Of a stretch of DNA of 64,000 nucleotides, positions 54,367-62,980 are shown in pieces (within the stretch, counting starts at the first letter, position 1; each line of letters starts with the position of its first letter). Below the pieces are notes generated by a model that had not been told where the DNA came from, did no database searches, and was given only the letters and a program-made list of their open reading frames with translations. Origin of the DNA: an uncultured Prevotella sp. (GTDB taxonomy: Bacteria; Bacteroidota; Bacteroidia; Bacteroidales; Bacteroidaceae). The DNA is taken from positions 31,768-95,767 of the forward strand of contig CADCEF010000004.1 in NCBI GenBank assembly GCA_902800365.1, read 5' to 3'. The translations under genes were made by a program, and so were the position numbers.

Positions 54367-54439
54367 GCACCCGTAGCTCAGTTGGTAGAGCACCTGACTC
54401 TTAATCAGGGTGTCCAGAGTTCGAGCCTCTGCGGGTGTA
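54367..54439 (+). tRNA. trnK: tRNA-Lys(CTT)
   Basis: 73-nt cloverleaf: GCACCCG/CGGGTGT acceptor, anticodon arm CCTGA-CTCTTAA-TCAGG, T arm CAGAG-TTCGAGC-CTCTG; CCA not encoded. Confidence 0.97.
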
Positions 54440-54447
54440 CTGATATT

Positions 54448-54478
54448 AAGAAGAGATAAGTTATACTTATCTCTTCTT
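54448..54478. terminator. Palindrome H1
   Basis: AAGAAGAGATAAG-TTATA-CTTATCTCTTCTT after tRNA. Confidence 0.85.
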
Positions 54479-54574
54479 TTTGTTTTATATCACTAAAATA
54501 ATCATAAATCCTTGGAAGTCTCAAATTATTGTCTTATCTTTGCACCCAGATGTATTACAATTGAATTACAAAAT

Positions 54575-54829
54575 ATGGCAACAACGACGATTAGAAAGCC
54601 CGCTTCGTTCAGACTTAGGGCTGACCTCTTAGAGGGATTAAAGCGAAATGCTGCACGAGAGAACAGGACACTCAACAACTATGTTGAGAGTGTGCTGCTC
54701 GGTATTGTATTTGATGAACCTAACGAGGTGACTAAAGCCGCTATCAAGGAGGCTAAGTCAGGTAAGAACCCCAATAAGGTTTATGATGATATTGATGAAC
54801 TCTTTAAGGATTTAGATTCGGATAAATGA
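54575..54829 (+). CDS. Ribbon-helix-helix antitoxin-like protein with no toxin partner
   Basis: RKPASFRLRADLLEGLKRNAARENRTLNNYVE, PNEVTKAAIKEA; own promoter TATCTTTG at about 54535. Confidence 0.75.
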   Translation: MATTTIRKPASFRLRADLLEGLKRNAARENRTLNNYVESVLLGIVFDEPNEVTKAAIKEAKSGKNPNKVYDDIDELFKDLDSDK

Positions 54830-57216
54830 AGAAACTTTTATCAACTATCGTGCTGGCCATTGTTGCAACTGCCGGGTGGGCACAAACTCGAATATGGAAT
54901 AACATTGTTACCGGCTATTCCAATGTACCATTTGTAAAAGTAACCAAGGTAGTACTTAGTGCCGACAGCACTGAGGTATTTCTGCATTTCGACATGCCAG
55001 AACGTGCTGCAGGCCAGGAAGGTGTATTGGCTGCGAAATCGCAACTCCAGGCCGACGGTAAGACCTACGAAGCAAAGAACGCCGTAGGTATGAAACTGGG
55101 GCAGCCCGTCAAGATACCTAAGGACTGTAAGTTAGACTTCTCGCTGGTGTTCGATGCCCTGCCAGCATCTACATGGCAGTTTTCTATAAGTGATCCCGGC
55201 ATGTGGATAATTAATGCTGTACGCGATGCTGATGCGAATGCTGATGCTGATGTAACCCCCGTTGGCGTCACCGACACTTATTGGCGCAATACGCTTACTG
55301 GCGACTGGCTGGTAGGATTCGGCCAGCACCATGTAATATATGATAATAAGGTGTGGGATATCCTGAATCAGAAAGAACAGAAGGACGCCTACGAGCTTAC
55401 TCTGAACAATGGACTTACCATCAAGGTGGGCAAACTGAAGAAAGGTATTCGCCCGATAACTATCGGCGATGCTAAAGCTATCGCCTGCAGTGCGATCACT
55501 AATCTGTCGATAGCCGACTATCCTACGAAAGATACTCGCAAGGGATTTGTAGACAACGGTTATCGTGAGGGCGACAGCGTTACCATCATAGGCTGGCTGA
55601 AGGATATGCCAGAGCCGGCGTGGAGACTAAGTGACGAGTTTGAAGTAAGGACGAGCAATTTCATCAGTGATAAAACTGAAAGCTATAAAGCAAAGCTCGA
55701 CTCGCTGGGACGATTTACACTCCGAATGCCCATACTCAATTCTACAACAGCAATACTCGACCCGCGAAGATCTTGGGAATGGTCTGTATTAGAACCTGGA
55801 AAGACGTACTTCTTCCTGAACGACTTCACGACTGGCCAGAAGCTGTTTATGGGCGATGACGTACGTTTGCAAAACGAGCTTGTGGCTTGTGATGCAGCAT
55901 GGCCGGATGCGCGCATCAATAAAGGCGAGAGCGCCATGCAATTTAAGGCGCGCACGGATAGTGACTGTGAAGCCATAATGGCCAAGATGCAGGAGAATAT
56001 CGCACATCGCCCGAACATATCGCAGCGCTATATCGATTACATTAAAGGACTGTGTATGGCAGGGCAGGGCAACTCGATGATGCAGGCCCGATTCGATGTG
56101 CCTGGCAAAAATCTGCCCAAGGAGTATATGGATTATGTTACCACCAAGCTGTGGCAGCCCATGCCTAAACCTTATACGCTCTATATGAACTTCGCACCAT
56201 TTATGCGCGACTATCTTGACCACCTGAGAAATGAGCGCCACTCTGTGAGCATTGATCCTTACACAATAACGTTGAACGACGGTGCCTATCCCATCATTTT
56301 ACGCCAGGCTAGGGCTGATGGCAAGGTATCGATTACCGACGAGGAGCTTGCCCTAATGGAGCGTTATGCAGTGGAATATCACAAGGAGTATGCCAAACAA
56401 GCCAAGAACCAGAAGATAGATAGTCTAAACATTGATTTGGCTGGTACCGATTTAGATAAGCTTGGCATTGCGGAGCAGTATCTTGCCATTATGGAGCGTC
56501 CTGATGTGAAGAAGGCGATAGAGCAAGAATTCTCGTTGATAGATTTGTATTACCAAAAGCAGGCTATCGAATCGGCAACTACCGATAGGGCATTGATTGA
56601 TATGGCCTTGGCTCGCAAATTCTATTGGAAGCTTAACTCGTTCCGCAAGTCGCTTGACCCTTCTGATTTGAATTTCGCCAATAAAGAAATCAAGTTGGCA
56701 TCGGCACTAAACTTTGTTTTGACCGAAAACGATAAGTATGTAGCTTTGGAGCATCAGGACTTGGCTAATGCAGCCAGTCTGCGACCATCAACCGATGTTG
56801 CGAACATGACCGATGGCGAGAAGATGCTGCGCAAGATTATCGAGCCATATAAAGGCCGAGTAATCTATCTCGATGTATGGGGCACTTGGTGCGGCCCTTG
56901 CAAGCAGAAACTAAAGGACTCGTGGAAAGTAAAAGAGGCACTCAAGGATTACGATATCGTGTATCTCTACCTATGTAATGGCAGCAGCGATGAATCGTGG
57001 AAGAATGTGATTAAGGAGTACAATCTGACAGGACCAAACTGTGTTCACTATAATCTGCCAAAAGAACAGCAGAGTGCTATCGAGCATTACCTGAGTGTAA
57101 ACAGCTTCCCCACATATAAGATTATCGATAAGCAGGGAAACATTCACGACCTAGGTTGGCTCGACGATCAAAATCTGGAGGCATTCAAACAGACTATGGG
57201 AAAATTCTGCAAGTAA
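54826..57216 (+). CDS. Large secreted protein with C-terminal TlpA/thioredoxin-like domain
   Basis: Signal peptide ending WAQ; YLDVWGTWCGPC, SFPTYKIIDKQG. Confidence 0.85.
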   Translation: MKKLLSTIVLAIVATAGWAQTRIWNNIVTGYSNVPFVKVTKVVLSADSTEVFLHFDMPERAAGQEGVLAAKSQLQADGKTYEAKNAVGMKLGQPVKIPKDCKLDFSLVFDALPASTWQFSISDPGMWIINAVRDADANADADVTPVGVTDTYWRNTLTGDWLVGFGQHHVIYDNKVWDILNQKEQKDAYELTLNNGLTIKVGKLKKGIRPITIGDAKAIACSAITNLSIADYPTKDTRKGFVDNGYREGDSVTIIGWLKDMPEPAWRLSDEFEVRTSNFISDKTESYKAKLDSLGRFTLRMPILNSTTAILDPRRSWEWSVLEPGKTYFFLNDFTTGQKLFMGDDVRLQNELVACDAAWPDARINKGESAMQFKARTDSDCEAIMAKMQENIAHRPNISQRYIDYIKGLCMAGQGNSMMQARFDVPGKNLPKEYMDYVTTKLWQPMPKPYTLYMNFAPFMRDYLDHLRNERHSVSIDPYTITLNDGAYPIILRQARADGKVSITDEELALMERYAVEYHKEYAKQAKNQKIDSLNIDLAGTDLDKLGIAEQYLAIMERPDVKKAIEQEFSLIDLYYQKQAIESATTDRALIDMALARKFYWKLNSFRKSLDPSDLNFANKEIKLASALNFVLTENDKYVALEHQDLANAASLRPSTDVANMTDGEKMLRKIIEPYKGRVIYLDVWGTWCGPCKQKLKDSWKVKEALKDYDIVYLYLCNGSSDESWKNVIKEYNLTGPNCVHYNLPKEQQSAIEHYLSVNSFPTYKIIDKQGNIHDLGWLDDQNLEAFKQTMGKFCK

Positions 57217-57333
57217 TTTGATACCGCCCCTAGGCGCACGAATATGCGGTACTTGGGCAGGGGCGAACAGGCTGTTCTCTCCTGCTTTGGATTGAGCCGA
57301 ATGTGGCGGGGCTTTATGCGCTGCCTCTTTCGG

Positions 57334-58458
57334 CTATTTTGCTTTTAAGGTGATGAGCCAAGGATTTGGCTTGTCGGTGGAACCGAAAAGGGTGGCTTTG
57401 TCACCGATGGCGCTGAAACGGCGCAGCTGCAAGTAGTCAGGATGGCCGTCGGCATCGGTGTCGTTGAAGGTGATAAGCGTGCACCAGCCAAGCTTGAGGT
57501 AGCCAGCGTTGGCATAGGTGAACGGAAGTTGTTGGCGCTGTGCGCCTTGAACGCTGTCACCTTGTACGGTGATGCTGTCGCCAGGGGCGAGAAGGTACAT
57601 GCCTGAGTCGGACGAGTTGCCTCGTTCTTCGAGGGTGTGATTGTGTCCAAACAGTAGGACGATGTCGTGTTTTTGGGCGGCACGGCTAAGGGTATTGAAC
57701 CAGCGTAGCCCGCCGGGGTTGTCATTACGAGAAGCGTGAATAGGCACGTGTGACATCACGATGATTGGGGCGTGACCGCTTAGGGTGTCAGCCCATGCCG
57801 CGAAGCGGGCGGAGGCCGATTCGGCTGAAATGCCGTAAGGGTCGGCTATGTCGATACCATTGTAGGCGCGCAAGCCGCCAGATGGTTGCTGTGGCATTGG
57901 CATGGTACTATCATTATTAGCAGGTGGAGGATTGTTGCCTGGAATGTTATCACCTTGCTCATCGTAAAGAGCTACTGCAGCTCGTGTCAACGAGTCGGTG
58001 GCATAAGCCATTTGAGCGTAGCTGATACCATAGATATAATAGCCATCGCATCGATGGGGACCACTAAAGAAGGCTGAATAGTCATCGGTGCAGTTCCGGT
58101 CATGTGAGCCGTAAGTAAAGAATATCTCTGTCTTGTTAGGATCGAGTGATGAGAAAATCTCTGATCGGAGGTCGGCAAGTGTGAAGGCTGGTTGTCCTGT
58201 ATCTCCTGCATCAGGACCACTGCCTACGTAGTCGCCTCCGAGCAGCACAACACTTGGAGTAACAATACCATTGCGGTTGGCAACCTTTTGAATAGCTGCT
58301 GCCAGATTGTTGCCATTGCCCGCCTCATGACGGTCGGACGCGACAAATAGCGAGGTTGTTTTACCTTCCCAAACAGGTGGATTGTCTTCCGTAGCACAAG
58401 CAGTTATCATCACGATACTGCAGATTGCCTTAATAGCAAGTAGTAAATCTTTCTTCAT
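57334..58458 (-). CDS. Calcineurin-like metallophosphoesterase lipoprotein
   Basis: Lipobox ITAC; SDRH, GGDY, GSHD, SHVP, GHNH motifs. Confidence 0.85.
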   Translation of the reverse strand: MKKDLLLAIKAICSIVMITACATEDNPPVWEGKTTSLFVASDRHEAGNGNNLAAAIQKVANRNGIVTPSVVLLGGDYVGSGPDAGDTGQPAFTLADLRSEIFSSLDPNKTEIFFTYGSHDRNCTDDYSAFFSGPHRCDGYYIYGISYAQMAYATDSLTRAAVALYDEQGDNIPGNNPPPANNDSTMPMPQQPSGGLRAYNGIDIADPYGISAESASARFAAWADTLSGHAPIIVMSHVPIHASRNDNPGGLRWFNTLSRAAQKHDIVLLFGHNHTLEERGNSSDSGMYLLAPGDSITVQGDSVQGAQRQQLPFTYANAGYLKLGWCTLITFNDTDADGHPDYLQLRRFSAIGDKATLFGSTDKPNPWLITLKAK

Positions 58459-58561
58459 CTTTAGATTGTTTTATGGTGCAAAGATACAAAAAATATTGGA
58501 TGAACCTCACGGTTTGGCAAATATTTCGTTTTAGAAATTCAGATGTGACTGATTCTTTAAT

Positions 58562-58695
58562 CTGCTGCAAAGATAACATAATTAGAGAAAACAACAAAAA
58601 AAAATCCCTATTATTCATTGGGGATATCCCTATAATATAAAAAGAGATAAGCTTTGGGGCTTATCTCTTTTGCTTATATCATATTTATTGCTTTA
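58562..58695 (-). repeat. Junction module copy A (palindrome + promoter) with inserted hairpin H2
   Basis: 58562-58635 nearly identical to 60207-60282; TATTGCTTTA shared at 58686-58695 and 60287-60296. Confidence 0.9.
58640..58671. terminator. Palindrome H2
   Basis: AAAAGAGATAAG-CTTTGGGG-CTTATCTCTTTT. Confidence 0.85.
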
Positions 58696-59040
58696 TAATA
58701 CAGCAGCGTGCTTTAGTTCGTTTTGGATGGCTTTATTGATAAAATCGTTTATTGTGGTGCCAGTAGCTGCCACAACAGCTGCCACTCGAGAGTGAAGCTC
58801 TGACGACATGCGAAGATTCAATCTCCCACTATATGGCTTAGCAGGTTCAACCCCATCAGCTTTACAAGCTTCGAGATAGCTGTCAACACCATCCTCAAAA
58901 TCCTTACGTAATTCTTCGAGTGTATCGCCTTCATAGAGAATCAGCGCCTTACTCATTCCCTGAACCTTTCCAAACAGGCAGTTATCTTCCTTACTATACT
59001 CTACACTGCCTTTGTAGCCCTTATACTCCAAATAATCCAT
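58693..59040 (-). CDS. hicB: HicB family antitoxin
   Basis: LEYKGYKGSVEYS, YEGDTLEELRKDFEDGVDSYL, KPYSGRLNLRMSSELH. Confidence 0.93.
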   Translation of the reverse strand: MDYLEYKGYKGSVEYSKEDNCLFGKVQGMSKALILYEGDTLEELRKDFEDGVDSYLEACKADGVEPAKPYSGRLNLRMSSELHSRVAAVVAATGTTINDFINKAIQNELKHAAVL

Positions 59041-59048
59041 ATCATTAA

Positions 59049-59309
59049 TTATTTAATATGTCCATACTCTTTAAGATGCTGATAAATCGACTTGATCATC
59101 CACTCTTTCATAATACTACCAGGATGAGGGCGATGAATATCAATGTAAACACCTAATGTATCATTCTTAAATCTAACACGAGAGCCTGAAGTTGCCCCTT
59201 TATTATGAACATTATATCCGAAGTGTGCTAAAAGTGCAATAGTTTCTTCGTACGTAAAGTCCTTGGGTTTCTTCTTGAAACGTTCAACCAATTTTTCTTT
59301 TGTACCCAT
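59049..59309 (-). CDS. hicA: HicA family toxin
   Basis: MGTKEKL, GATSGSRVRF, IHRPHP. Confidence 0.92.
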   Translation of the reverse strand: MGTKEKLVERFKKKPKDFTYEETIALLAHFGYNVHNKGATSGSRVRFKNDTLGVYIDIHRPHPGSIMKEWMIKSIYQHLKEYGHIK

Positions 59310-59329
59310 AATTATGTATTTGGCTGCAA

Positions 59330-59347
59330 AAGTACTAAATTTAGTAC
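59330..59347. promoter_or_regulatory. Putative HicB operator
   Basis: Perfect palindrome AGTACTAAATTTAGTACT overlapping the hicA -7 box (TACTTTTG on -). Confidence 0.7.
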
Positions 59348-59490
59348 TAACTTCCAAACTTTTTTCCGATTATTTTAGTTTTCCACCTTATATCCTTTTT
59401 AAAAGTATCATTTCATAAAAAAAGTGGGTTCGATATTTGGTAGTAACAGGAAGTAACATATACAGGGTCTAAGTGCCTGATATTCAAGAA

Positions 59491-59514
59491 GGGTTCGACA
59501 CTCTGCGGGTGTAC
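59491..59514 (+). repeat. Duplicated tRNA-Lys 3' end (attR-like)
   Basis: GGGTTCGACACTCTGCGGGTGTAC; preceded by AGTAACA direct repeats at 59442 and 59452. Confidence 0.85.
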
Positions 59515-59521
59515 GAAAAGC

Positions 59522-59553
59522 AAAAGAGATAAGTCGAAAAACTTATCTCTTTT
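59522..59553. terminator. Palindrome H3
   Basis: AAAAGAGATAAG-TCGAAAAA-CTTATCTCTTTT. Confidence 0.85.
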
Positions 59554-59560
59554 TTGTTTT

Positions 59561-60178
59561 TTATTCAAGTTTTCGTCCTCGATAGTAATCATTAAATGCA
59601 TCTTTGGCATAGCCATCGCCAGTATATTTAAATGTGCCGGCAGAGGCTCCGTCTACTTTCTTTCCAAAATAGAACACGGTGAATGCATCCTTGGCGTAAC
59701 CACCTTCTAATAACTTAAAGGAACCTGCTGAAGCTTCAATCTTTCTACCATGATAGAATACGCTGAAAGAATCCTTTGCATAACCTTCGCCTATTTCCTT
59801 GAATGTAGCTGCAGTTGCGTCTATCTTTTTACCATCATAGTAAACATTAAAGTCTGATTTGTAATAACCTTCATGTCGTCTGTCGTAATCGCGGTGTTCC
59901 ATTGGTTCACGATAATGCGACTTAGAATGACTCTTAAGACGGAAAGTAGCAGGATCGACATACTCCAGCACTCGACCGTCGAGATATACATTTTCGCAGT
60001 CCTTTGCATAACCGCAACCTAAATCTACGAACGTACGAGCATCGGCATAAGGGATTGGCTTGCGCTCAAAAAGCACTATGCCACGGTCGACTTCATACGA
60101 TTGTGCATATACCGATACAGTACATCCTAATAATCCTATCACCATAAGTGACTTCAGTAAAAATGCTTTCTGTTTCAT
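59561..60178 (-). CDS. DKNYY-family repeat protein, exported
   Basis: Repeated YAKDxxxVYYxGKKI units; signal peptide. Confidence 0.82.
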   Translation of the reverse strand: MKQKAFLLKSLMVIGLLGCTVSVYAQSYEVDRGIVLFERKPIPYADARTFVDLGCGYAKDCENVYLDGRVLEYVDPATFRLKSHSKSHYREPMEHRDYDRRHEGYYKSDFNVYYDGKKIDATAATFKEIGEGYAKDSFSVFYHGRKIEASAGSFKLLEGGYAKDAFTVFYFGKKVDGASAGTFKYTGDGYAKDAFNDYYRGRKLE

Positions 60179-60206
60179 ACTCTTGATAATTTAGAATTTT
60201 AAATAA

Positions 60207-60296
60207 CTGCTGCAAAGATAACATAATTAGAGAAAACAACAAAAAAGAAAATCCCTATTATTCATTGGGGATTTTCCTATAACATCTATTGCTTTA
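60207..60296 (-). repeat. Junction module copy B
   Basis: Palindrome AAAATCCCTA-TTATTCAT-TGGGGATTTT abutting -33 TTTG / -7 TATCTTTG promoter of DKNYY gene. Confidence 0.9.
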
Positions 60297-60382
60297 CTGA
60301 ATAAATCAGCCTGTTAGCTGATAATTTTTCTTTAGAAGGAATAGAAATTTTATTTTTGCATCGGATTAAACAAATAAATAAG

Positions 60383-60952
60383 ATGCGAAAGAAACAATTA
60401 TTGGTAATATGTATGTTCCTGATTTCAGGAAGCCTGATGGCTCAGGAGCCAATGCATAAACGAAAACAAGTGACCTATGAGCAGGTTACTAAAATGATGG
60501 TCAAGGATCTTCAGCTGGATGAAAAGCAGCAGAAGAAGGTGACTAAACTCAATAAGAAGTACAAAACCCTTATTGAGGGTGAGCAACGCGAGGCTCCAGG
60601 CAAAGGACGCCCTAATATGGGTGAACGACCTTCAGGACCTCCTAGTGGCGGTATGCCGGGTGGACCTGGTGGTTTTGGTGGTGGTCCTGGAGGCGGCTTC
60701 GGTGGAGGCATGCCTGGAGGTATGGGAGGAGGCCCAAGGACGGGTGGAATGCCCGGAGGACCAGCTTCAGAAAACAGCTATGACTACGACAAGAAACAGA
60801 AGAAGTACGACAAGGCAATAAGCAAAATCCTGTCTGAAAAGCAGATGGAGGGTTATCAGGAGATTAAGACCCAGTTTGCCTCACAGAGACGCGTAAGAAA
60901 CTTCTTGTTTGGTTCACCACAAGACTTCAACAAAGATGGAAAAGATAAGTGA
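60383..60952 (+). CDS. Exported protein with Gly/Pro/Met-rich low-complexity linker
   Basis: Signal peptide ending MAQ; GGPGGFGG repeats between helical Lys-rich segments. Confidence 0.7.
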   Translation: MRKKQLLVICMFLISGSLMAQEPMHKRKQVTYEQVTKMMVKDLQLDEKQQKKVTKLNKKYKTLIEGEQREAPGKGRPNMGERPSGPPSGGMPGGPGGFGGGPGGGFGGGMPGGMGGGPRTGGMPGGPASENSYDYDKKQKKYDKAISKILSEKQMEGYQEIKTQFASQRRVRNFLFGSPQDFNKDGKDK

Positions 60953-61053
60953 GTTGGTAATGGCTGTAATATCAGCGATAGTCCAAAGTGCAGTATTCCT
61001 TGTGATTCTTTTTATGCTGTTCATATCCTTTGTCAGCATATTAATACCAGCAA

Positions 61054-61085
61054 AAAAGAGATAAGCATTTGCGCTTATCTCTTTT
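61054..61085. terminator. Palindrome H4
   Basis: AAAAGAGATAAG-CATTTGCG-CTTATCTCTTTT, directly after HEPN stop. Confidence 0.85.
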
Positions 61086-61088
61086 ACT

Positions 61089-61493
61089 TTATTGTTTATT
61101 CTCCTCTTCAAATAACTGATCTTTGAAGAATGCTATCGCTTGTTTTAATGGTTCCAACTCTTTTTTTACTACTTCGTAGACAACATCAGCGTCGACTTCA
61201 AAGTAGTGATGAGCCATAATATCGCGTATACCCATAACCCTTTTCCAAGGAATGCTTGGATATGTAGGTAATAGTTTTCCTTCGGAAACTTTGTCGAGAT
61301 TCTTAATAGACTCTCCGATTGCTATCAGTACCATACATGCAGCATCAAGTTTCTCCATTCCCACAGGACTGGTTAAGAAATCATCAACTGAAAGAATGTT
61401 TTTGGTTCTTTCCTGGAGTCTGTTTATGGCCAATTCCAGCTGACTAAGAGTATGCCATATTAGAGGCAGATTCTCTGATGATATCGATTCCAT
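61089..61493 (-). CDS. HEPN (DUF86/HepT-like) toxin
   Basis: IPWKRVMGIRDIMAHHYFEVD (RX4H); start codon uncertain. Confidence 0.88.
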   Translation of the reverse strand: MESISSENLPLIWHTLSQLELAINRLQERTKNILSVDDFLTSPVGMEKLDAACMVLIAIGESIKNLDKVSEGKLLPTYPSIPWKRVMGIRDIMAHHYFEVDADVVYEVVKKELEPLKQAIAFFKDQLFEEENKQ

Positions 61494-61767
61494 CTTTCTC
61501 AATTTGTTTAAGTAAGAAAGCATCATTATTACGATGTTTCCTGATTAAGTCAACATGACATCCAAGCAGACTTTCGAGATACTCTTGCAGACCAATTATC
61601 TTATAGATACTAGGTTCCATCTCAACAAACACATCAACATCGCTCGACTCATGCTGCTGATTACGAGCTAACGAGCCAAACAAGCGAAGCGAACGGACGT
61701 CGAATTCTTCAATAATCGTCTTTGCATTCGCCAAAATCTTATCGATGCATTCTTGTCTACTTAACAT
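61444..61767 (-). CDS. Minimal nucleotidyltransferase (MntA-like) antitoxin
   Basis: LFGSLARNQQHESSDVDVFV, LGCHVDLI. Confidence 0.9.
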   Translation of the reverse strand: MLSRQECIDKILANAKTIIEEFDVRSLRLFGSLARNQQHESSDVDVFVEMEPSIYKIIGLQEYLESLLGCHVDLIRKHRNNDAFLLKQIEKDGIDIIRESASNMAYS

Positions 61768-61895
61768 ATCTGCTGCAAATATAACTCAATTATCTGAATA
61801 ATGCAAGTTTTTATGGAATTTTCCATTATTTGTGCTAATATTTGAGACTTTTATGAGATTTTTTTAGTACCTTTGCACCCCCAAAAAAGAAAAAA

Positions 61896-62234
61896 ATGAC
61901 ATTACACGATCTTATAAACTCTGTAGACACCGAGCAGTATAGCGATAATCAGCTATACCAGAAGCTCCGTAATACTAAGCCAGAATATGGCTATCTCCGA
62001 CGTATTAATGTAAAAGAAGAAAAAGGCAAGCTCATAATCACCAACACTCATATAGGCTCACTAGGCGACATTCTTACATACGTAGTTGATGTAGCTCCGG
62101 AACTGAACATATCTAAGGTTCAGCTCTTGGACGCCATCCTGCAGGAGATGTCAAAAGGCGGTTTCTCAGAGCAAGAAGAGTGCGTCTTCTGGAATGATTT
62201 CGACAATCTTCAGAAAGCCAAGATTATCAGATAA
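61896..62234 (+). CDS. Hypothetical protein
   Basis: 112 aa ORF downstream of TACCTTTG box. Confidence 0.65.
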   Translation: MTLHDLINSVDTEQYSDNQLYQKLRNTKPEYGYLRRINVKEEKGKLIITNTHIGSLGDILTYVVDVAPELNISKVQLLDAILQEMSKGGFSEQEECVFWNDFDNLQKAKIIR

Positions 62235-62260
62235 ATCATAATTCACCACGAAATAAAACA

Positions 62261-62381
62261 GTTATAGGAAAATCCCCAATGAATAATAGGGATTTTCTTT
62301 TGGGGCGATAAACTGAAAAGTGTTATCTTTGCAGCGGTTATTTAAAAATCGTAATTATCAATCATTAAAATTAAAAGTATG
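62261..62381 (+). repeat. Junction module copy C (inverted relative to A and B)
   Basis: 62261-62301 is the exact reverse complement of 60243-60283; promoter and leader also resemble copy B. Confidence 0.9.
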
Positions 62382-62936
62382 AAAAAGCTATTATTTATTA
62401 TGGTGGCCCTATGCATGGCTACAACAATCGATGCACAGGTTTATGTGGGTGGTGGAATCGGTTTCACCCGAACAACTGAAGCTTTAAACAAGTCGACTAT
62501 CTTTAGACTTATGCCCGAGGCAGGATATCGTATTAACGATCGCTGGGCCATAGGTTTGTCTCTAGGTTATGCCAATTCTAAGAATTCTACAGAAGTAAGT
62601 GGTATGGAATCGGAACTGAAACTAACGCAATATAACTTTAATCCATATGCACGTTATACCTTTGCAAAAATAGATAAAGTTGGTTTGTTTGTTGATGGAG
62701 GTGTTGAGTATATACACCGCGACATCAAAGGGTCATATGATACAAATGCCTGGAATATTGGTCTGCGCCCAGGTATCAGTTTCGCTGTGAACGACAAAAT
62801 AAGTCTTGTGGCCCAAGTAGGATTCCTTGGTTACCGCACTCAGAAATCAGATTTTGAAGGCGCAATAGCCACAAACACTTTCACAGCCGATATAGATGGT
62901 AATGATCTCTCCTTCAGTGTTTATTACAACTTCTGA
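62379..62936 (+). CDS. Outer-membrane beta-barrel protein
   Basis: Signal peptide ending DAQ, alternating aromatic strands, C-terminal YYNF. Confidence 0.85.
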   Translation: MKKLLFIMVALCMATTIDAQVYVGGGIGFTRTTEALNKSTIFRLMPEAGYRINDRWAIGLSLGYANSKNSTEVSGMESELKLTQYNFNPYARYTFAKIDKVGLFVDGGVEYIHRDIKGSYDTNAWNIGLRPGISFAVNDKISLVAQVGFLGYRTQKSDFEGAIATNTFTADIDGNDLSFSVYYNF

Positions 62937-62942
62937 AAAAGA

Positions 62943-62974
62943 AAAAGAGATAAGCGCAAAAGCTTATCTCTTTT
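62943..62974. terminator. Palindrome H5
   Basis: AAAAGAGATAAG-CGCAAAAG-CTTATCTCTTTT between convergent genes. Confidence 0.85.
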
Positions 62975-62980
62975 TTGTCT

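Follow-up and report, generated by a model that had tools for sequence, protein, structure and literature searches.

A 2-kb inversion between short terminator-promoter-like repeats occurs in both orientations in rumen Prevotella

The capsule promoters of Bacteroides fragilis are invertons that are flipped by the Mpi or Tsr recombinases, and the invertons of Bacteroidales typically consist of a promoter of 150-400 bp. In gut Bacteroidota, a tyrosine or serine invertase is typically encoded close to the inverton (PMC11892184). Here we analyze a window of 64,000 nucleotides from an uncultured Prevotella sp. (contig CADCEF010000004.1 of assembly GCA_902800365.1, positions 31,768 to 95,767 of the forward strand), in which a block of genes lies between two inverted copies of a 41-bp repeat, named hp1; coordinates refer to this window unless another contig is named. 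The locus shares with the Bacteroidales invertons the inverted repeats, the existence of both orientations, the Bacteroidota host and the surface or exported proteins encoded next to it. However, the Prevotella block is 2 kb long and contains five genes, it has no adjacent invertase in a genome in which no serine recombinase was found, the promoters of its flanking genes lie outside the block, and its repeat is a locus-unique 41-bp putative terminator hairpin and not a member of a site family. Besides, both orientations are known here at the level of the population, from contigs of different samples. The locus most likely works like an inversion generated by non-allelic homologous recombination (NAHR), a kind already known from rRNA operons, insertion sequence copies and duplicated genes. 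As in those cases, the breakpoints lie inside identical inverted copies, a dedicated enzyme is not required, the population harbours the two arrangements, and recombination tracts appear to be blocked at the inversion edges. It differs from them in that the repeat is only 41 bp long, which is near the lower limit for RecA-type exchange, and in that hp1 is itself palindromic, so that template switching promoted by hairpins or cruciforms may contribute. Our literature search turned up no report of invertons in rumen Prevotella.

The two arms of the repeat, hp1B (60243-60283, hairpin on the minus strand) and hp1C (62261-62301, plus strand), were identified by a repeat search of the window as reverse complements of each other at 41 of 41 positions, with 1977 nt between them. 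The sequence of the arm at 62261-62301 is GTTATAGGAAAATCCCCAATGAATAATAGGGATTTTCTTTT. Scanning the 64 kb with this 41-mer and allowing up to three mismatches yielded exactly two matches, while 0.00 were expected from 100 shuffles; the perfect inverted repeat that a sequence-only reading of this DNA had reported is therefore genuine. The flipped segment, 60243-62301, measures 2.06 kb, and its interior runs from 60284 to 62260.

About 30 distinct rumen metagenome contigs were collected by exact-pattern scans and exact-protein look-ups and were then mapped to the window. Each hp1 copy on them was classed by its inner flank, which is either that of the Gly-rich gene (G-side) or that of the gene for a 112-aa protein (H-side), and by its outer spacer. 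Spacer B (60183..60242, minus strand) holds the promoter and leader of the leftward gene encoding a DKNYY-family protein, and spacer C (62302..62378, plus strand) those of the rightward gene encoding a small outer-membrane beta-barrel protein (OMP); both spacers lie outside the block. In the state of the window (W), the G-side is joined to spacer B and the H-side to spacer C; in the inverted state (I), the H-side is joined to spacer B and the G-side to spacer C. Besides the window itself, four contigs that bridge both repeats are in state W (L040, L044, L057 and L059), and eight are in state I (L039, L041, L042, L043, L053, L055, L056 and L058). From left to right, these eight carry the DKNYY gene (leftward), a repeat, the 112-aa gene (leftward), the MNT and HepT genes (rightward), the DUF4890-like Gly-rich gene where it is present (leftward), the other repeat and the OMP gene (rightward). 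A further 13 contigs cover a single junction, six of them of type W (L028, L029, L031, L033, L045 and L060) and seven of type I (L030, L034, L037, L038, L046, L048 and L062). In both states spacer B always accompanies DKNYY and spacer C always accompanies OMP, and it is the inner flanks that swap. Because the outer spacers are fixed and the inner flanks are exchanged, the point of exchange must be located inside the 41-bp repeat.

These contigs also bear on the view that there is no real inversion, and that the locus merely contains a duplicated terminator-promoter or operator module, the inverted contigs being assembly errors. Short repeats can indeed mislead assemblers, one contig (L048) has W-type and I-type junctions at opposite ends, and another (L030) ends 13 nt past the repeat. 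However, the bridging contigs, including the eight inverted ones, come from different samples and were assembled either by MEGAHIT with k = 127-141, far above 41 bp, or by a second assembler, metaSPAdes, so that a repeat of this length could not have confused the assembly. In addition, the inverted contigs have their own haplotypes of single-nucleotide polymorphisms (SNPs), with private SNPs and private deletions, among them deletions of the DUF4890-like gene, which makes them distinct molecules. We therefore regard an assembly artefact as scarcely credible. The 2-kb inversion is real, and both orientations persist at the population level. The proposal of the sequence-only reading that the block flips, as opposed to being found in one orientation only, thus holds across strains.

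Some contigs were of less use. The Logan contigs of ERR3201396 (L035, L047 and L052; k = 31) break within the repeat and are uninformative on orientation. In L048, a MEGAHIT contig, positions 1-107 form a W-type junction (H-side, hp1 with one mismatch, spacer C) and positions 2085-2766 an I-type one (G-side, hp1, spacer C, OMP); it represents either a strain with two spacer-C modules or a chimeric contig from a sample holding both orientations. The last 54 nt of L030 are common to the junction of the other arm, as a branch point at k = 55 would leave. The ends of L030 and L048 are suggestive of mixing within a sample but were not used as evidence for it, since the lengths do not fit cleanly.

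As judged from the relationships among these sequences, orientation is probably independent of the genealogy of the block, and several independent flips have probably occurred. In a maximum-likelihood tree of the block interior (61040-62260) from 16 contigs, orientation changes four times (three to five in bootstrap replicates), and about five times when the labels are shuffled. The window, which is in state W, is closest to two contigs in state I, L053 and L055 (8 differences in 1221), and likewise L057 and L059 (W) are closest to L062 and L048 (I), with 5-6 differences. On the H-side, the 54-nt inner flank is identical in W contigs (L031, L057 and L059) and I contigs (L039 and L062); on the G-side, it is identical in four W and 11 I contigs. 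It is the presence of identical flank haplotypes in both states that points to a recurrent flip. Similarly, a left context with HicAB and one with a 313-aa gene were each found together with both states.

What the repeat copies are can be gathered from their surroundings. Folded as RNA, the outward strand of hp1 forms an 11-bp stem with a 12-nt loop (-12.2 kcal/mol) that is followed by a U-run, whereas the inward strand folds at -15.0 kcal/mol without a U-run. The tail behind the stem reads UUUU(GGGG) or UUUUUUG; the terminator scan made no call for hp1, whose 12-nt loop is outside the 3-8 range of that scan. The outer T-run of each arm merges into a TTTG, at 62299-62302 on the plus strand and at 60243-60240 on the minus strand. 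A -7 box, TATCTTTG, comes 20 nt after the right TTTG (62323-62330) and 19 nt after the left one (60220-60213). The Bacteroidota promoter of the sigma-ABfr type reportedly consists of a -33 TTTG and a -7 TAnnTTTG about 19-21 nt apart, and both outward promoters, as predicted here, match this consensus. The leaders at 60183-60223 and 62321-62361, which include the -7 boxes, are 90% complementary over 41 nt, whereas the 20-nt spacers between hairpin and -7 box are alike at just 6 of 20 positions (30%). The sequence-only reading had proposed that each arm ends at the -33 TTTG of an outward promoter and that the DKNYY and beta-barrel genes have similar leaders, and both proposals agree with these data. 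Its alternative, that the palindrome is a terminator fused to the next promoter, probably gives the best description of each copy, and it is compatible with flipping. The likeness to an intrinsic terminator joined to a Bacteroidota promoter lies in the stem-loop and the T-run ending in TTTG, 19-20 nt upstream of TATCTTTG. On the other hand, a loop of 12 nt is long for a terminator, and in the window there is no gene upstream of hp1B whose transcription it could terminate. hp1C, which lies 27 nt past the stop codon of the 112-aa gene, is a possible terminator for that gene.

The perfect 41 bp form the identity core of a module of about 100 nt that is 82% alike overall between the two sides, and the repeat is kept in nearly all of the approximately 45 hp1 copies seen across the contigs. 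The 2.89-Mb genome contains three copies only, all in one islet, and hence a single invertible pair. The third copy, hp1A (58595..58635, minus strand), has the same orientation as hp1B, of which it is a direct repeat, and is 93% complementary to hp1C; it appears decayed, its stem being weak (-5.8 kcal/mol). Between it and a Metallophos gene downstream lies a promoter module that shares 98% identity with the DKNYY one. The sequence-only reading had overlooked this copy, as well as a second hairpin family (hp2, see below) and the restriction of both families to the islet. No hp1 was found in 300 other species of the genus with up to three mismatches allowed (0/300), and among GTDB representatives it occurs only in one sibling, Prevotella sp. 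RUG126. One module, composed of the hairpin, promoter, leader and ATGAAA, precedes four unrelated genes for exported proteins, namely Metallophos, DKNYY, OMP and, on L033, a 121-aa protein that is followed by a CarbopepD_reg_2 protein (window 58553-58584, 60183-60242 and 62302-62378; L033 1693-2991). Judging by this recurrence, it looks like a portable expression module.

How, then, may the block be flipped? No recombinase gene was present in the block or among its neighbours in any context (at least five left and three right contexts). The genome, a 92.8%-complete metagenome-assembled genome (MAG), had 0 matches to serine recombinases (Resolvase, PF00239). Tyrosine recombinases (PF00589) are encoded at three loci, on contigs C28, C39 (372 aa) and C45, and none of them is on C4, the contig with the block. 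Moreover, no promoter or coding part was found that the flip would switch for a flanking gene: the promoters of DKNYY and OMP are located beyond the repeat and are never detached from their genes, and those within the block belong to internal genes, which end at the palindrome hp2c or at hp1. Thus, of the possible inverton put forward by the sequence-only reading, the flipping stands, while the usual sense of the term, a promoter switch driven by an invertase, finds no counterpart here in either the enzyme or the switchable promoter.

We consider it reasonably probable that the inversion results from general homologous recombination between the inverted terminator-promoter copies, perhaps with hairpin-induced template switching, and without a dedicated invertase. 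According to this scheme, a module with a terminator-type hairpin, the U/T-run of which also provides the -33 TTTG, would have been duplicated ahead of several genes for exported proteins, one of the copies, the third, having since decayed. The two facing copies, identical over 41 bp, would then recombine and flip the 2.06-kb block 60243-62301, the exchange being the work of the general machinery for homologous recombination or the result of template switching at the hairpins. The flip would have happened repeatedly in nature, with both orientations kept in the population. Several observations are in line with this. Firstly, the breakpoints lie inside identical inverted copies, as in an NAHR-type event. 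Secondly, the absence of hp1 from the 300 other species, together with its three copies in the genome, indicates that there is no site family served by a global invertase. Thirdly, on L033 the inverted repeat spans a whole module of 113 nt (hairpin, spacer, promoter and leader) and surrounds the Gly-rich cassette alone, which fits duplication and exchange driven by homology and not site-specific exchange. Fourthly, rearrangements that do not involve hp1 also occur in the region, as some contigs have deletions of the Gly-rich gene, of OMP or of HepT-MNT; such events at other homologies or microhomologies lend indirect support to homologous recombination. Finally, exchange between perfect repeats of about 40 bp takes place at about 1e-7 per generation in E. 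coli. At that rate, several flips would be expected over the time needed for 1% divergence, which supports homologous recombination in a rough manner.

Several points weigh against this interpretation. The support for multiple flips is statistically weak, the well-supported branches of the tree forcing one change only, and recombination between strains could mimic recurrence and yield part of the pattern. Forty-one base pairs are short for efficient RecA-type exchange, yet the flips look frequent relative to a divergence of 0.5-2%. The identity is perfect and sharply bounded, with a 20-nt spacer that is 30% alike followed by a leader that is 90% alike, and this is also the pattern of a recombinase site. 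Lastly, with a completeness of 92.8%, the MAG may lack the gene of a recombinase acting in trans.

Some of these points would suit a programmed inverton, in which the hp1 palindrome is the target of a site-specific recombinase that acts in trans and inverts the block at a high rate, causing phase variation through read-through from the 112-aa gene or through coupling of the divergent promoters. Both orientations are common (eight versus four bridging contigs) and untied to genealogy, and the repeat is not only perfect and sharply bounded, but also retained in nearly all of its copies. Surface or exported proteins, such as those encoded by the outward genes, are usual neighbours of Bacteroidales invertons (PMC11892184), and trans-acting invertases are known in Bacteroides, Mpi being cited in the same source. 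In addition, the U-tracts UUUUGGGG and UUUUUUG differ, so that the flip could change the efficiency of termination. However, no invertase lies near the block in any of the left and right contexts mentioned above, serine recombinases are lacking from the genome, and none of the three loci for tyrosine recombinases is linked to the block. A global invertase usually has many target sites, whereas the genome contains a single invertible pair. Furthermore, the promoters of the outward genes are outside the block, and no single sample among the contigs has both states, L048 being ambiguous. Taken together, we regard a programmed inverton as unlikely.

The block belongs to a hypervariable islet, 54367-62980, which extends from a tRNA-Lys(CTT) gene (54367..54440, plus strand), its left anchor, to panE. 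A second palindrome, hp2, with the structure AAAGAGATAAGC-N6-GCTTATCTCTTT, has the shape of a bidirectional terminator (-17 to -20 kcal/mol) and marks every cassette at its 3' end (HicB, DKNYY, the small open reading frame (ORF)/HepT pair and OMP/PanE), with an hp2-like copy directly after tRNA-Lys. The five sites are 54448-54478 (the hp2-like terminator behind the tRNA), 58639-58675, 59517-59556 (hp2b, after DKNYY), 61051-61090 (hp2c, between the small ORF and HepT; -17.1 kcal/mol) and 62938-62977 (hp2d, between OMP and PanE). An exact-pattern scan of the genome matched three of these five sites and nothing beyond the islet. Left of DKNYY, the contents of the islet vary strongly among contigs (e.g. 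L039, L053, L057, L058, L060 and L062): they comprise HicAB; Metallophos and a 796-aa thioredoxin-like protein; CarbopepD_reg_2; AraC and Lactamase_B; or genes for proteins of 313 aa and 259 aa. No integrase was seen in any islet context. Small DNA-binding proteins encoded locally include HicB, MNT and an RHH protein (54575-54829). A DNA comparison with 60 relatives gave short scattered matches only; the locus is species-specific, and cross-species synteny is therefore unusable.

Deletions occur in the islet as well. Three independent ones (L041 1945-2005, L053 5822-5882 and L037 300-360, corresponding to window 60380-61012) remove the Gly-rich gene and keep a 43-aa ORF, and all three are in contigs of the inverted state. 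One of them runs exactly between two AAGATG repeats and brings the 43-aa ORF up to the start codon that belonged to the deleted gene. OMP has been lost in some strains through a joint 62322|62923 (L031 135-195 and L060 2615-2718), at which spacer C is fused to the last 12 nt of the OMP frame and hp2d, the -7 box, the leader and nearly the whole gene being gone.

This variability raises the question of whether hp1 and hp2 are recombination sites with an attC-like role, at which cassettes with exported-protein and toxin-antitoxin genes are inserted, excised, exchanged and inverted next to tRNA-Lys. Like integron arrays and shufflons, the islet has short structured repeats between small accessory-gene cassettes, and its content differs greatly between strains. 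Both hairpin families are confined to it, its cassettes are bracketed by hp1-promoter at one end and hp2 at the other, and some joints do lie at hairpins, such as the hp2c-hp1 junction of L031, where hp1 is an A/B hybrid. The stretch over which L039 matches the window at 100% identity also extends from hp1A to hp1B. On the other hand, no integrase was seen in any context, no IntI or Rci-type recombinase accompanies the islet, and the cassettes possess promoters of their own, unlike those of integrons. Many joints lie off the hairpins, including the three deletions of the DUF4890-like gene and the OMP joint 62322|62923. Moreover, the repeated modules are the only homology common to the unrelated cassettes, so that homologous recombination would join them there anyway. 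We therefore judge such cassette shuffling to be very improbable. It also seems quite improbable that hp1 and hp2 are sites for an unlinked or unrecognised hairpin-acting enzyme, the islet being an integrase-less cassette shuffler with the 2-kb flip as its reversible, phase-variable output. If that were true, the flip would choose OMP or DKNYY as the recipient of transcription leaking through the terminator. Two further candidates were rejected. A transposon or a miniature inverted-repeat transposable element with terminal inverted repeats was discarded because the flanks, CAACAAAAAA and GGGGCGATAA, show no target duplication, the genome has a single copy, and no empty DKNYY-OMP site occurs in 30 contigs. 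An integron was discarded because the contig has no tyrosine recombinase, and thus no IntI, and because the cassettes have their own -7 boxes.

The sequence-only reading named DKNYY, beta-barrel and HEPN-MNT genes in the block and its flanks, and the Pfam searches confirm DKNYY, HepT, MNT and OMP_b-brl. The left outward gene (59561..60178, minus strand) encodes an exported protein of the DKNYY family (PF13644, E 9.7e-23), and the right outward gene (62379..62936, plus strand) the OMP (PF13505, E 3.2e-19). The first gene in the block (60383..60952, plus strand) encodes the Gly-rich exported protein and has its own -7 box, TATTTTTG, at 60351-60358. This protein has a weak Pfam match to DUF4890 (18 bits, E 0.004), and PF16231 is listed for it in the precomputed matches of the collection. 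The 43-aa ORF (60933..61064, plus strand), which is hydrophobic, overlaps the 3' end of the Gly-rich gene. On the minus strand follow the HepT (HEPN) toxin gene (61089..61526; PF01934, E 8.4e-19), which is called with 134 aa in other assemblies (61089-61493), and the gene of the MNT nucleotidyltransferase antitoxin (61444..61767; PF18765 and PF01909), with a -7 box, TATATTTG, at 61785-61778.

The 112-aa conserved hypothetical protein is encoded at 61896..62234 (plus strand), behind a -7 box, TACCTTTG, at 61866-61873. Among the genes of the block, this one alone is directed toward a repeat arm, and its stop codon lies 27 nt before hp1C. No Pfam domain was found in this protein, nor in any of its at least 1197 homologues, which are unnamed or annotated as "hypothetical protein". 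On other rumen contigs (L067-L082), an overlapping gene for a protein of 64-79 aa comes after the homologue of the 112-aa gene, often in tandem copies and in unrelated contexts, such as after CrcB or FKBP genes. The pair resembles a small two-gene mobile module, of which the window lacks the partner gene.

With regard to its consequences, the flip most likely has little regulatory effect and is largely neutral, because it leaves each internal gene with its promoter and terminator and the flanking promoters are outside the block. Each unit of the block has a -7 box of its own (60351-60358, 61785-61778 and 61866-61873) and its own terminator-like hairpin. What the flip does change is which outward gene follows the 112-aa gene and which U-tract stands behind the hairpin, namely UUUUGGGG toward OMP in state W and UUUUUUG toward DKNYY in state I. 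By its sequence, the differing U-tract could alter the read-through from 61896-62234; in both states, a hairpin with a U-run separates the 112-aa gene from either outward gene.

The inversion may also have left its mark on the exchange of DNA between strains. The window is 100% identical to L039 and L041 over 58626-60283 and 99.95% identical over 62261-64075, whereas the identity is 97.3-97.5% in the inverted interior and 96.8-98.2% further out. The near-identical blocks stop exactly at the inner edges of the repeats, and the left one begins inside the decayed hp1A. They look like recent exchange tracts that end at the inner repeat edges, as expected if the inversion blocks the extension of heteroduplexes. 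An inversion polymorphism of this kind would thus set sharp limits on recombination tracts between strains, within an islet between tRNA-Lys and panE that is a hotspot of cassette turnover. Finders of invertons that rely on a repeat and two orientations would call this locus phase-variable, although its anatomy argues against a switch. The case documented here in uncultured rumen Prevotella suggests that a 41-bp terminator-promoter duplicate may suffice for the continued flipping of a multi-gene block in wild populations, with no invertase linked to it.

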